This document shows, piece by piece, positions 25,673 to 29,824 of a stretch of 34,594 nucleotides of DNA. Numbering within the stretch: the first letter of the stretch is position 1; each line of letters opens with the position of its first letter. The position numbers and the translations under genes were made by a program. The stretch lies in assembly GCA_965195285.1 (NCBI GenBank), contig CBDAFS010000032.1, positions 1 through 34,594 of the forward strand. Reading direction: 5' to 3'. Below the pieces are notes generated by a model that was given only the letters and a program-made list of their open reading frames with translations, was not told the DNA's origin and made no database searches. The DNA comes from an uncultured Aminicenantes bacterium (GTDB taxonomy: Bacteria > Acidobacteriota > Aminicenantia > UBA2199).

Positions 25673-25762
25673 AAATGAAAAAGAAAGAAAAAGGGGACAT
25701 CTCCCATTTCTTTTATATCTATAAATGTAAATCAAATCTAGATAATATGTGTTTTTGCTTTG

Positions 25763-26030
25763 GGCTGGGTGCTGGTTGCCGGAGGCTGAAAATACGCCCG
25801 GAGGGAGTCGAACCCCCAACGCGCAGATTTACTCGCTCGTTCATCACTCGCTCACCTTCGGTTCCTTCCCTTCGGTCAGTCATGCTGATTCACGTTGAGG
25901 TGAATCATGGGAAGTCTAAATTACACTTCTCCCAAAACCCTTATGGAGTCAGGTATAATCAGGTTTAAGGGACAATCAAATTGAAAATTAATTAAAATTT
26001 AACCAAAATAATTGGCACAAAGCTGGCACA
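25763..26030 (-). repeat. att-like direct repeat, copy 1
   Basis: 25792-25918 matches 29165-29291 at 126/127. 25919-26030 matches 29292-29403 at 84/112 with no gaps. 25763-25791 matches 29135-29163 at 21/29 (hand counts). Confidence 0.95.
25793..25914 (-). pseudogene. interrupted 3' half of tRNA-Arg(UCG), positions 32-73 (att core), copy 1
   Basis: Removing 25821-25855 and 25866-25910 leaves CT-TCG-GA ACCGA AGGTT GGGGG TTCGACT CCCTC CGGGCGT A, which has exact canonical tRNA numbering. No D arm, 5' acceptor strand or CCA. Confidence 0.8.
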
Positions 26031-26033: not shown

Positions 26034-28988
26034 CTATTCCTTCCCTTCCAGTTCCTTCACTCTTTTTCTGGCATCCTCCACTAGGTGCTGAAACTGAGGA
26101 TCGCAGTCCTGCCACAAGTTAATGAATTTGTTGTAGTTTTTTATGGCTTTATCTTTTTGACTTTGTTGCTGGTAGATTTTTCCCAAAATATAGAATGCTT
26201 TAGCATAGATGTCAGCATAGAAGCGCCTTCCCATAGGCAACTGTGTGACCCTCTTATACTGGGTGAGGGCATTCTGAAAGTCTTTTTTTTCAAAAAAAGT
26301 TGATCCCATGGCATTTGAAAAGACAAACTGCATGTTCGAGGTGGCTAGTGTAAGAGATAATCCCCGTTTGTAATACTCAAGGGCTTGGGAATATTCTTTT
26401 TTTTCATGCGAGATCAATCCAAGAAGATGGAAATAGGTGAACATAATCCTCTTATTCATCTGCTGTTCGATCATCCCTTTGAGAGCATCAGCCGTTTCTT
26501 GGGCCTTATCAAGAGATCCAAGGGCGATGTAAACCTGGGCTTTTGTATGTAGATTTTGTCTTTGATGCGCATAGGCCTCATTTTCTGTGGCGCTCTGCCA
26601 ATGTTCCTCTAGTTTGTCTAAGGCTCTTTCTGGATTCACTGTTCTCAGTTCTATTTGTACTAATGCATTTTGATAATCCCTTGCCCACCTCTTTTGACCG
26701 AGTTTTTCTGAATACTCCAGACCTTGATGTAAGGTTTGTTTTGCCTGAGTGAACTTTCCTTGATGGAGAGCCAATGCTGTCTTAAAATAGAAGCCCCGAA
26801 GGTTAGCGGCCGCTTCTTTTTCTTCAAGAAGTCTTCTGGATTCCTCCTTTGCTTTTGACAGCTTTCCTGTATAAAAATAGATTGACCACCTTCGCAGATG
26901 ATTGTTCCAAGCAGTTGGATCAAGAGAAATGGCTTTGTTATCCTCCTCAAAAGCCAAGTCGTATGCTCCTTGACATTGATATGTAAAAGCAAGGCTCCTG
27001 CGAATAAAAGCGCTGTCCGAGATGTTTTTGATGTAAGATCTGAGGACCTCCTCAGCTTTGTCGAAGCGGCCCATCCGTCTGTATGAGCGGGCCTGATTGG
27101 TGTAAATGACCACGTCTTCGCTTCCGCCCCTCTTGCAGACTTCGTAGTATTCAATGGCCCTGGCATTTTCTCCAATTCGGCCGTACAGATTACCCAGCAT
27201 GTTGTTCCCGCTGACATCCTCCGGGTAGAGCCTCAATAAGGATTCCAGCGCCTCTTTTCCTTTGTCATAGGTCTTCTCGGTTTGAATATAAAAGTCAGCC
27301 TGGATATTGAATTTCTCTCTGTCAGAGAGCCTAGAGCTCAATTCCAGAGCTTTTTTGATGTATTTCTCTTCTTCGGCATAATAACGAAGGTTCCCGTAGG
27401 CCCAGGACATGGCCCGGTAGGCTGAGGCGAATTCCGGATCTACGGCCACGGCCTTTTCCATGTACTCAATGACCTTCCGGTAATTTCCTTTAAGATCGTA
27501 TCTGATCCCTTCCAGATAGTATTCGTAGGCTTCAGGGGATGAGGTGGTGATTTGGCCAATGTCTTTATCTATATCACCGGAAATTTGCTTTTTTGATAGA
27601 TTCAATTTTGATTTGATCTCACGAGTGATGCCATCTATATTGGAAAAAATTTCTCCCCTTTTTGTTCTTACTGATAATGAACTGATGGTTTCGCCGGTGT
27701 CGGCTTTTAATAGAACGGTGGTTATGACAAAGTTATCTTTATCTTTTATATAACTTCCCCTTAAAATATGATTGACTCGGCCCTTTTTGGCAATTTCTAT
27801 TAGATCTTGTGTTGAGTACCTTTTAGCCTCCAGAAGGTTTAACTTTTTAAAAATACCATAAATTTCATCCGATCTTAAGACCCTAATGTATTTAGACTGA
27901 GAAAGGTCTATGGTCAAAAGCTCAGAAAACGCATCTCTCCAGTTATCCAGTTTTTCATCCCCGGATTTGTTTTCAAAATATACAATAGCAAGTGATGGTT
28001 TACTACCTGGCTCAACCGGAGGTAATTCCAGTTCAACTTTTCCTTTAAAGATAAAATATCCAGCAATGATGATAGCAGCAAGAAATGGAATAGCAAGAGA
28101 CAGGATTTTGGGTGAGAATGTTACTCCAGGTTTCGCTTTGGGTTTTACCTTTATTGATTTAATTTCAGGTTCAGATTCTCTTTTTATTTTTCTAAGATCT
28201 ACCAGTAGATCTGGTGTTCCCTGATATCTCTCGTTTGGATCTTTATTGAGTATCTTTTTGATTATACGTTCTAGCTCCATAGGAATACCGGTTCTTAATC
28301 CTGTAACCGGCTCCGGCTCCTCATTCATGATCGCATACATGATAGCCTGTTCGTATTCGCCTTTGAATGGCAATTGCCCGGTGATCATTTCATAGAGGAG
28401 CACACCCAGAGACCAAATATCAGAGCGGTGATCCATTTTGTCACCTGAAGCCTGTTCAGGGGACATATAATCCACAGTTCCCAGAGTGGTTCCCTCTTTG
28501 GTGAGTTTGGTAACTCCCTTTAACTTGGCCAGACCAAAATCCAGGATTTTTACCTCATTTCTTTTGGTAACAATAATATTTGCTGATTTAATATCCCGGT
28601 GAATAATATTTGATTCATGGGCTCTCTGTAATCCCTGGGCTGCCTGAATGGACATATTAATAGCTTCGGCTATGGGCAAGGGGCCAGAGGCAATTTTATC
28701 TTTTAAGGTTTTCCCCTCATAGTTAGCCATAGCAATGAACATCTGGCCGTCATCGGTTTCATCGATCTCGTAAACCGAACAAATATTGGGATGATCAAGC
28801 GCTGCGGCTGCTTTAGCCTCATGGATGAACCGTTTTTTCTCTTCTTCATTAATGCTGAATTGTTTGGGTAGAAACTTAAGAGCTACCAGCCGGTCGAGTT
28901 TGGTATCCTGAGCTTTGTATACAACACCCATTCCTCCCTCACCCAGTTTTTCCTGGATCTTGTAGTGAGAAATGGTTTTTCCAATCAT
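26034..28988 (-). CDS. Hanks-type Ser/Thr protein kinase with TM, TolB-N-like and TPR domains
   Basis: LGEGGMGVVY, VALK, HRDIKSAN, DFG, GTVDYMSPEQ and DIWSLG kinase motifs. A TM helix near residue 300, then FENKSGD...LSQ and many TPR-like repeats. Confidence 0.95.
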   Translation of the reverse strand: MIGKTISHYKIQEKLGEGGMGVVYKAQDTKLDRLVALKFLPKQFSINEEEKKRFIHEAKAAAALDHPNICSVYEIDETDDGQMFIAMANYEGKTLKDKIASGPLPIAEAINMSIQAAQGLQRAHESNIIHRDIKSANIIVTKRNEVKILDFGLAKLKGVTKLTKEGTTLGTVDYMSPEQASGDKMDHRSDIWSLGVLLYEMITGQLPFKGEYEQAIMYAIMNEEPEPVTGLRTGIPMELERIIKKILNKDPNERYQGTPDLLVDLRKIKRESEPEIKSIKVKPKAKPGVTFSPKILSLAIPFLAAIIIAGYFIFKGKVELELPPVEPGSKPSLAIVYFENKSGDEKLDNWRDAFSELLTIDLSQSKYIRVLRSDEIYGIFKKLNLLEAKRYSTQDLIEIAKKGRVNHILRGSYIKDKDNFVITTVLLKADTGETISSLSVRTKRGEIFSNIDGITREIKSKLNLSKKQISGDIDKDIGQITTSSPEAYEYYLEGIRYDLKGNYRKVIEYMEKAVAVDPEFASAYRAMSWAYGNLRYYAEEEKYIKKALELSSRLSDREKFNIQADFYIQTEKTYDKGKEALESLLRLYPEDVSGNNMLGNLYGRIGENARAIEYYEVCKRGGSEDVVIYTNQARSYRRMGRFDKAEEVLRSYIKNISDSAFIRRSLAFTYQCQGAYDLAFEEDNKAISLDPTAWNNHLRRWSIYFYTGKLSKAKEESRRLLEEKEAAANLRGFYFKTALALHQGKFTQAKQTLHQGLEYSEKLGQKRWARDYQNALVQIELRTVNPERALDKLEEHWQSATENEAYAHQRQNLHTKAQVYIALGSLDKAQETADALKGMIEQQMNKRIMFTYFHLLGLISHEKKEYSQALEYYKRGLSLTLATSNMQFVFSNAMGSTFFEKKDFQNALTQYKRVTQLPMGRRFYADIYAKAFYILGKIYQQQSQKDKAIKNYNKFINLWQDCDPQFQHLVEDARKRVKELEGKE

Positions 28989-29036: not shown

Positions 29037-29165
29037 TAAATGTGTTTTAATTTTAAAAAAGTAATTATTATGTCCCCATATTTAATGCATGCAGGCAAGC
29101 AGAGGATATCAACTTAGAATGTTGAACTTAGTTTGGCTGGGAGCTAGCGACAGGATGTTGAAACA

Positions 29166-29287
29166 TACGCCCGGAGGGAGTCGAACCCCCAACGCGCAGA
29201 TTTACTCGCTCGTTCATCACTCGCTCACCTTCGGTTCCTTCCCTTCGGTCAGTCATGCTGATTCACTTTGAGGTGAATCATGGGAAG
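29166..29287 (-). pseudogene. interrupted 3' half of tRNA-Arg(UCG) (att core), copy 2
   Basis: Identical to copy 1 except G25894/T29267. Inserts at 29194-29228 and 29239-29283. Confidence 0.8.
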
Positions 29288-29384
29288 TCTATATTGCATA
29301 TTCCCCAAAACGCCCTTATAGTCAGCTATAATAAGGTTTTCGGAGCAATAATTTTGAAAATAAATTAAAAATTAACCAAAATAT

Positions 29385-29403
29385 TTGACACAAATTTGAC
29401 ACA
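29385..29403. promoter_or_regulatory. putative integrase arm-type site pair, copy 2
   Basis: TGACACA at 29386 and 29397 (11-bp period), positionally equivalent to the TGGCACA pair of copy 1. Confidence 0.6.
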
Positions 29404-29824
29404 GTTGGTATATTGTTGACATTTATTGTTTCTGATTTTAAAATACGTGCATCGGGACTTTGACTTCCATTTTCATTTAATTTGGAGTCAGTATTACAAA
29501 ACCGGAGGCATGGGTGATGGAGAATGATGAATTGATCAACAAAGATGATCTGAAAAGAGCAGCAGTGAACCTGGCATGGGGTTGGTAAAACCACCAGACT
29601 TGATTGGAAACCTGCTGCTTGGCAAATAAATGATTTATGAACGATTTCGCACATGTCATGAGCCAATACGGGATTGGACGAAGAACCATGAGATCTGAAA
29701 AATATCTCTTATGGACCTGGCATGGTACTGATCGTTTTCTGGGATGCATAAAATGCATCAAGGGCTGCTGGATTTAAATCCGGAACTTGCCTTAAACCTG
29801 ATGGGTGACCCTTGTTTTTAAAAC

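Follow-up and report, generated by a model that had tools for sequence, protein, structure and literature searches.

Folded mini-elements of about 80 nucleotides in the loops of displaced tRNA fragments of Candidatus Aminicenantes

The window analyzed here, a stretch of 34,594 nucleotides (contig C32 of assembly G000, which measures 3.28 Mb and is 94.9% complete), carries a displaced 3' fragment of tRNA-Arg(UCG) twice, once on either side of a protein kinase gene, and both fragments are plugged by the same small folded insert, here called element E. The family to which E belongs, tied to tRNA loops and to the attachment scars of genomic islands, is well supported as a group of new, structured mini-elements. 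We see about an even chance that E is a non-autonomous mobile module specific for hairpin loops, probably acting as folded single-stranded DNA. The relevant features of the window are as follows.

25755-25791 (limits approximate), minus strand: stretch of about 35 nt past the tRNA end of copy 1, homologous to the stretch past copy 2 (alignment columns 333-365)
25792-25829, minus strand: copy 1 of the tRNA-Arg(UCG) fragment, positions 37-73 plus one base, with 38/38 identity to the live gene at C43:49261-49335
25830-25910, minus strand: copy 1 of element E, one 81-nt insert in place of G36, with helices P1-P4 (alignment with the live gene and an insert-free fragment; covariation)
25911-25918, minus strand: TAGACTTC of copy 1, tRNA positions 28-35, the left edge of the tRNA identity block (alignment)
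25919-26030, minus strand: AT-rich arm of copy 1 with repeated TTTGTGYCA words; its homologue is the right arm of the C43 tRNA-Arg island that bears the integrase (75-86% identity to the C43 arms)
26034-28988, minus strand: 984-aa Ser/Thr protein kinase with TPR repeats (Pfam Pkinase, 3.8e-53, and TPR families)
29165-29202, minus strand: copy 2 of the tRNA-Arg(UCG) fragment, positions 37-73 plus one base, with 38/38 identity to the live gene
29203-29283, minus strand: copy 2 of element E, 81 nt, one base off copy 1 in the P1 loop (alignment; joint in public contigs)
29284-29291, minus strand: TAGACTTC of copy 2, tRNA positions 28-35 (alignment)
29292-29403, minus strand: arm of copy 2, 71% identical to the copy 1 arm (last 120 nt, 85/120)

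The kinase-TPR gene is the sole gene between the two copies, and Pfam scans detected no integrase there or in the neighboring ORFs scanned. Taken as a unit (29162-29403), copy 2 lies 3373 nt from copy 1 and shares 88-89% identity with it over 242 nt. Covariance-model matches to E cover 25831-25907 in copy 1 (93.1 bits) and 29204-29280 in copy 2 (94.8 bits). The AT-rich arm of copy 1 is a putative integrase arm. Neither ARAGORN nor Rfam called a tRNA in the window, as expected for a fragment. Two strong sigma-70-like sites, matching 11 of 12 positions each, were noted on the plus strand at 29385-29444, at the outer end of the copy 2 arm and just past that end, pointing away from the kinase gene.

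A preliminary description of this DNA, made from its letters, had correctly placed a tRNA-Arg(UCG) fragment here; it is a minus-strand 3' fragment identical to the live gene at 38 of 38 bases and again at positions 28-35. The same description parsed the interruption as a 45-nt and a 35-nt insert with a duplicated GT, whose removal would restore tRNA positions 32-73. When aligned with the live gene and with a paralogous fragment that lacks the insert (C43:59497-59543), the interruption is a single continuous block of 81 nt. The fragment reads ...ACTTC, then 81 nt, then AATCTGCGCGTTGGGGG..., with only G36 absent, and tRNA positions 39-48 (TCTGCGCGTT) are kept intact directly after the insert. 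The two-insert parse arose because those positions had been rebuilt out of insert sequence, and the resulting tRNA matches no tRNA of the genome, an outcome that the description had itself named as grounds for rejection. Public contigs covering copy 2 give the same borders, with a joint that skips 29203-29283 (81 nt) and has one letter instead. The reported likeness of the two copies held for the insert and tRNA part, which are one base apart in the loop of the first hairpin, and so did the divergence of the upstream 120-nt arms.

In the Arg fragments the insert is framed as TTC, 81 nt, AAT, at a place where the live gene and the insert-free fragment, whose arm is collinear, read TTCGAAT. The T-loop of tRNA-Arg(UCG) itself reads TTCGACT, and its anticodon loop (positions 33-38) plus U39 reads TTCGAAT. 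Since the anticodon loop with U39 thus spells the common T-loop heptamer, the insert occupies the anticodon loop here and T-loops elsewhere. A conserved small ORF, a 54-codon frame at 25719-25883 with an SD-like word and an ATG in the P4 loop, was considered and dropped because its frames differ between the copies, with an indel immediately past the tRNA end, and because the ATG is missing in the GC-rich subfamily.

A complete, uninterrupted tRNA-Arg(UCG) gene was found by the ARAGORN check that the preliminary description had proposed. ARAGORN called 47 tRNA genes and one tmRNA in the assembly, and the single tRNA-Arg(UCG) gene (C43:49261-49335) has the anticodon arm GTAGA-CTTCGAA-TCTGC. This gene abuts a 10-kb island (C43:49336-59496; L009 3237-13397) that ends in the insert-free fragment at C43:59497-59543 and encodes a tyrosine integrase at L009 4665-5771, an HTH protein, an SMC/AAA_23 ATPase of 823 aa, a DUF4145 protein and a YaaC-like one, genes that could be defence cargo. 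The arm family of the window copies also flanks this integrase island, and a third insert-bearing Arg copy lies at C43:62157-62398, after bipA. The window fragments have the makeup of an att scar, with positions 28-35 and 37-73 identical to the live gene, in direct orientation, and the intact gene elsewhere. CIMEs are described in PMC5704250 as integrase-less segments bounded by att repeats and accreting in tandem; since the segment bounded by the window copies holds the kinase-TPR gene and no integrase, these copies are CIME-like at best.

Thirteen displaced 3' tRNA fragments were found in the genome, four with E (three Arg-UCG and one Val-CAC) and nine without. The Val example, a 3' fragment of tRNA-Val(CAC) on C55, has a diverged E (79 bits) inserted exactly into its T-loop (80 nt, TTC^AAAT); this fragment lies 6.4 kb from the live tRNA-Val, and the segment between holds a kinase and no integrase. 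The kinase domain of that C55 protein (C55:75551-79159; L010 7552-11160) is 70% identical to that of the window kinase over 270 aa, and the C-terminal parts of the two proteins differ, with TPR only in the window and AAA_16/STAND plus TPR on C55. Displaced 5' fragments are rarer; tRNA-Leu(CAA) and tRNA-Arg(CCU) pieces comprising positions 1-41 or 1-46 were seen at C20:53784-53824, C55:112410-112447 and C41:50664-50709. ARAGORN in intron mode also proposed a tRNA-Ile(GAU) with a 646-nt intron at C9:29981-30720, where Rfam sees neither a tRNA nor an intron, and the call is probably false. The three Arg copies of E are 1-3 bases apart, while identity among their arms is 71-83%, no closer than the 75-86% that these arms share with the arm lacking E. 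Judging from these identities, it looks as if E in this genome moved, or was converted, without its arms.

Outside the window, E proved to be a new family of small, ORF-less, four-helix elements of about 80 nt, an assignment that we regard as well supported. Four copies were found by nhmmer in the window's genome, and BLAST in 60 relatives returned homologues of the insert alone. The search for the inserts elsewhere, also proposed at the outset, succeeded in other genomes and in metagenome contigs. A covariance model built from 10 members found E in 24 of the 72 genomes of the family, which is labelled Candidatus Aminicenantes in public records, and in 7 of its 18 genera, with 1-15 copies per genome; under stricter filters the model found E in none of 146 other genomes sampled across the phylum. 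The family numbers 70-odd members in the 24 genomes, and their contexts vary widely. When a single genome of each species was scanned with a pattern, 12 stretches were returned, three of them chance matches inside coding sequence, and the nine real ones came from Candidatus Aminicenantes records, some labelled uncultured Clostridia, and one Oligoflexia MAG, which has two copies of E adjoining tRNA-Asp and tRNA-Leu. Metagenomes yielded 19 stretches, 11 of which contained 13 model matches, and viral contigs yielded no pattern match. Rfam 15 (4227 families, self-cleaving ribozymes among them; gathering score, and E-value up to 10) returned nothing on E, only tRNA genes, SRP genes and chance-level matches, and a search of the main texts of the full-text literature returned no account of such an element. 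A hammerhead-like core was rejected, as the order of the conserved letters does not fit the consensus when compared by eye.

The flanks of 52 copies were read by eye. In 26 of them E sits in a TTCRAAT-type loop of a tRNA-derived stem-loop, within a redundant tRNA 3' end; the loop is usually a T-loop, and in the window it is the anticodon loop with the same heptamer. An intact tRNA on the same strand was found 43-218 nt upstream of E in 19 of the 52 (criterion <400 nt), chiefly a tRNA-Ser (GCU, GGA, CGA or UGA). Excision of E in silico, with 49 boundary combinations for each copy, produced a complete tRNA in 0 of 52 cases. The remaining 26 copies occupy varied intergenic places unrelated to tRNA, often among other short repeats, with no obvious common target. 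The neighbors of E are unrelated housekeeping or metabolic genes, and apart from two Y1-type genes, Pfam scans found no recombinase beside the 40-odd loci examined.

Short repeats recur near some of these copies. In genus g7 (loci L055, L056, L078, L079 and L129), non-tRNA copies are surrounded by conserved words in varying order, namely GTGCCCCGCAGGGAG..., GAGGACC and ATTGAGCACAATTT...GCGTTAGCGCAAG, an arrangement that points to a mosaic built from several repeat modules. Another T-loop copy, in G079, holds a 19-nt filler with a relationship to the GTGCCCCGCAGGGAG word. At seven loci of G092 and G094 (L059, L086, L089, L093, L094, L064 and L091), E lies inside runs of short repeats, either AGAAGTC-type heptamers or ATTTGTTTCG/TGCTTCG words, and direct repeats at its borders therefore cannot be read there as target duplications.

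These placements come closest to one of three options raised in the preliminary description, that of site-specific elements tolerated in dead att copies, with one element in place of two; E is usually housed in the T-loop, and where it occurs at tRNA-Ser loci it is accompanied by a duplication of the tRNA 3' end. In the mechanism that we favor, the displaced tRNA-Arg(UCG) 3' fragment is a scar of the kind left by tRNA-integrating islands. E would fold as a single strand, the tRNA-sense strand, and an enzyme acting in trans would insert it into 7-nt hairpin loops reading TTCRAAT, a heptamer that makes up the T-loop of many tRNA genes. The loops filled by E are also presumed crossover subsites of tRNA-integrating tyrosine recombinases, which according to PMC4383910 comprise the T loop, the anticodon loop and the junction of T and acceptor stems. 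Only redundant tRNA ends would retain E, since a working gene would be destroyed by the insert.

Weak hints of action at the DNA level come from terminator-like hairpins with T-runs between the tRNA and E, seen by eye at two Oligoflexia loci and at locus L087 of G092, and from the lack of a minus-strand promoter-like site in the arms upstream of either E of the window. The G-U pairs of E fit RNA at least as well as DNA, and the proposed mechanism does not explain why G36 is lost or replaced in each of the three Arg copies. Metatranscriptome run X20, consisting of contigs only (14 M letters), covers neither E of the window and is silent on expression. In the genus of G092 the flanks of E are not syntenic in relatives, and their comparison gave no clean filled/empty orthologous pair.

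Two classes of transposase were considered as candidates for the moving enzyme. Matches to the IS91-type Y2 transposase (PF04986) were found in 0 of 5 genomes, in a search in which the positive control rang nowhere either. IS91 has the target GTTC or CTTG; GTTC precedes E at T-loop sites, and CTTC precedes it in the window. Y1/IS200-like genes (PF01797) occur in 59 of 72 genomes against 24 of 72 for E, with no co-distribution, and a Y1 gene adjoins E at 2 among about 56 copies. The window's genome has 16 Y1 (IS200-like) matches, in genes of about 300-330 aa, for example at C8:11392-11724 and C14:33752-34087. The copy of a Y1 gene that was scanned in the relative G014 has an additional DnaA-C HTH.

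The tRNA-Ser loci show a more elaborate arrangement. Their order is tRNA 5' part, U, E, U, and at times another E and U, where U begins in the T-loop and comprises the rest of the tRNA together with 2 to about 80 nt of flank. Units of 147-190 nt (tRNA 3' end, spacer and E) are arrayed in tandem behind tRNA-Ser genes, and their number differs between related sequences, with one in L148 (a metagenome contig) and two in L057 (a genome). Unit and host share an identity block that begins in the T-loop and stops 4 nt beyond the tRNA, resembling that of attP/attB pairs, and the match to the local tRNA (Ser, Asp, Leu, Val or Arg) on the left side of E is limited to 8-9 nt. Close pairs (<320 nt) of the tRNA-Ser 3' 16-mer were found in 10 genomes, always with E between the copies, and not one close pair lacking E was found in 72 genomes. 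The repeated part of the Oligoflexia unit contains a terminator. At tRNA-Ser loci, then, E seems to arrive with a replacement 3' end, as a cassette rather than alone. Retrotransposition of a mature tRNA end was ruled out as a source, since the duplicated segment holds genomic flank past the tRNA. On metagenome contig L147 (360-1302), a whole tRNA-Ser(GCU) and its E unit are duplicated with a 632-nt period.

This arrangement would be in keeping with E as the cis-acting end of miniature ORF-less integrative cassettes, mobile as small circles that recombine with the tRNA gene, a reading that we consider unlikely overall. Each circle would contain the tRNA 3' end, the spacer, a T-arm-like hairpin, the T-arm 5' half and E; recombination would restore the tRNA gene and shift older units downstream, and the window would be a larger version with the kinase as cargo. 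The tandem units and their varying number, the attP/attB-like identity block, the short match to the left of E, the presence of E in all close duplicates of the 16-mer and the terminator within the Oligoflexia unit all agree with it, as do the paralogous kinases in E-bounded segments of the window and C55. Cis-mobilizable elements and accretion are, moreover, known (PMC5704250). The position of E tells against such cassettes, since E lies between the half-sites of the presumed core and leaves a site unusable by a classical tyrosine integrase. So do the lack of any integrase near the arrays, the apparent movement or conversion of E without its arms in the window's genome, and the insert-free fragment within the same island family.

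The fold of E bears on a second alternative. E forms P1 of 6-10 bp, P2 with tandem G-A pairs, P3 of 3 bp round a GNA loop and P4, often with a GAUGA loop, and these helices are linked by the nearly invariant stretches CAYGAC ... GGARCCGNAGG. Over 53 distinct sequences, base pairing is found in 92.8% of cells compared with 72.0% in shuffles, two-sided changes occur at 17 of 19 pairs, none of 500 shuffles attains these values, nor does any slid register approach them, although these covariation figures are somewhat inflated because the alignment was fitted to the model. The many G-U pairs, 14 of them at a single position of the helices, assign the fold to the tRNA-sense strand. P4 of the window copies contains two G-A mismatches; the C43 copy is still paired there through G-U. 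In one genus, 7 genomes (21 pairs) share an orthologous tRNA-Leu/tRNA-Ser(GCU) locus with a single-copy E, and mean identity there is 81% for E and 87.5% for the T-arm-like hairpin before it, compared with 56% for the spacer and 45% for the downstream flank. E and the hairpin stand above their flanks, and the folded parts are therefore under constraint, for mobility or for a function.

Conservation of a single-copy E so far above its flanks could equally mean a host-level RNA function. E would then be a functional structured RNA, for instance a self-cleaving ribozyme or a protein-binding small RNA, transcribed with its tRNA-like flanks and spread only secondarily, which we hold to be somewhat less probable again than the circular cassettes. 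Four covarying helices with nearly invariant unpaired stretches and frequent G-U pairs, the identities at the single-copy locus, an orientation that is always that of the upstream tRNA, and a tRNA 3' end, in one case a terminator, following E are all in keeping with such an RNA. They must be set against the absence of a match among the 4227 Rfam families, the terminator-like hairpins before E at three loci, the absence of a promoter-like site upstream on the E strand in the window, and the mixed orientation of the non-tRNA copies relative to neighboring genes.

A bolder reading, which we consider improbable, makes E an ORF-less homing element, a folded nucleic acid, possibly catalytic or guide-like, that would direct its own insertion into T-loop-like hairpin loops and bring a replacement 3' end at tRNA genes so that the host survives. 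If it were true, E would parasitize a sequence that is among the most conserved in cellular genomes, and it would be a natural plug of island attachment sites.

It is more doubtful still that E has no present mobility, and that the window reflects one old insertion followed by segmental duplication and gene conversion, or else an assembly artefact. On the right side of E, 38-47 nt are perfectly identical, which could seed conversion, and De Bruijn contigs break at the repeat, where depth is several-fold higher. Gene conversion, another option of the preliminary description, may indeed account for the near-identity of the three Arg copies and leaves the family elsewhere unexplained. The number and variety of the members outside the window, the diverged member of the same genome in another tRNA fragment with the same TTC^RAAT junction, and the short, imperfect homology to the left of E all speak against a single old event. 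Assembly collapse, which had been named as a possible cause of the near-identity, is unlikely, since contigs of run X5, from another study, carry copy 2 with the insert (8 differences), with the caveat that run X1 may be the source sample.

The idea that E is a spliced tRNA intervening sequence, the fragments keeping an older intron-bearing allele, draws on its anticodon-loop position here and on archaeal tRNA introns, which occur in anticodon loops and T-loops and have been linked to mobile elements (PMC3293823). It is scarcely tenable, because the sole live tRNA-Arg(UCG), which had been proposed to carry removable inserts, has none, none of the 52 family members lies in a complete tRNA, the tRNA-splicing endonuclease domain (PF01974) has 0 matches in G000 in a search whose control rings in 4 archaea, and excision would not restore the anticodon with G36 missing (the flanks join as CUUC-AA, not CUUCGAA). 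The earlier judgment that the insert is not a group I or group II ribozyme was borne out by its length of 81 nt and by the lack of any Rfam match to the intron models at E-values up to 10.

If E is indeed mobile and loop-specific, as the mechanism that we favor has it, it would be a tiny gene-less element exploiting the universally conserved T-loop and sparing essential genes. As E sits where island integrases are thought to cross, it may lock islands in place or block the re-use of attachment sites, and either would affect the coming and going of genomic islands. The conserved four-helix core has good support as a candidate new family of structured nucleic acids. The insert also explains why tRNA finders miss such fragments, and it counsels caution against calling them intron-bearing tRNAs.

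Among known systems, the window locus recalls the att scars of islands, which are likewise direct repeats of the tRNA 3' part from the anticodon loop or T-stem, a general principle given in PMC4383910 and PMC5704250. An intact upstream tRNA, tandem units, and an integrase island of the same arm family at the live tRNA-Arg likewise agree with island scars and accretion. The E scar differs in being interrupted by a conserved, folded 80-nt module exactly in the presumed crossover loop, and many E units differ from islands in being just 147-190 nt long, gene-less and without an integrase nearby.

IS200/IS605 miniatures and REP/REPIN sequences, which Y1 (HUH) transposases move, share several traits with E, namely small size, absence of ORFs, multiple copies, a hairpin near either end, a fold specific to one strand and the lack of a clear target duplication; Y1-type genes are, as noted, abundant in the window's genome. 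In contrast to them, E has no sequence or positional link to Y1 genes, and the duplication of the tRNA 3' end at the Ser loci would be unexpected from the peel-and-paste transposition of IS200/IS605. A conserved central core with two further helices, as in E, is not known from these miniatures or from REP/REPIN.

Integron attC arrays also consist of short units that end in a site folding as a single strand beside a fixed recombination point, and the loop size within the site is variable, as in the E units. The T-arm-half stem of the E units is only 4-5 bp, however, the cassettes are ORF-less and E also occurs outside arrays; Pfam scans of the array flanks detected no recombinase of any kind and no IntI-type integrase.

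Intervening sequences of bacterial 23S rRNA genes and archaeal tRNA introns at non-canonical positions lie within working genes, and their removal takes place in the RNA. Like them, E is a structured insert of about 100 nt in place of the tip of a conserved hairpin loop of a stable-RNA gene, with a sporadic taxonomic distribution. In contrast to both, E is found solely in non-functional gene fragments, and in a genome without the archaeal splicing endonuclease.
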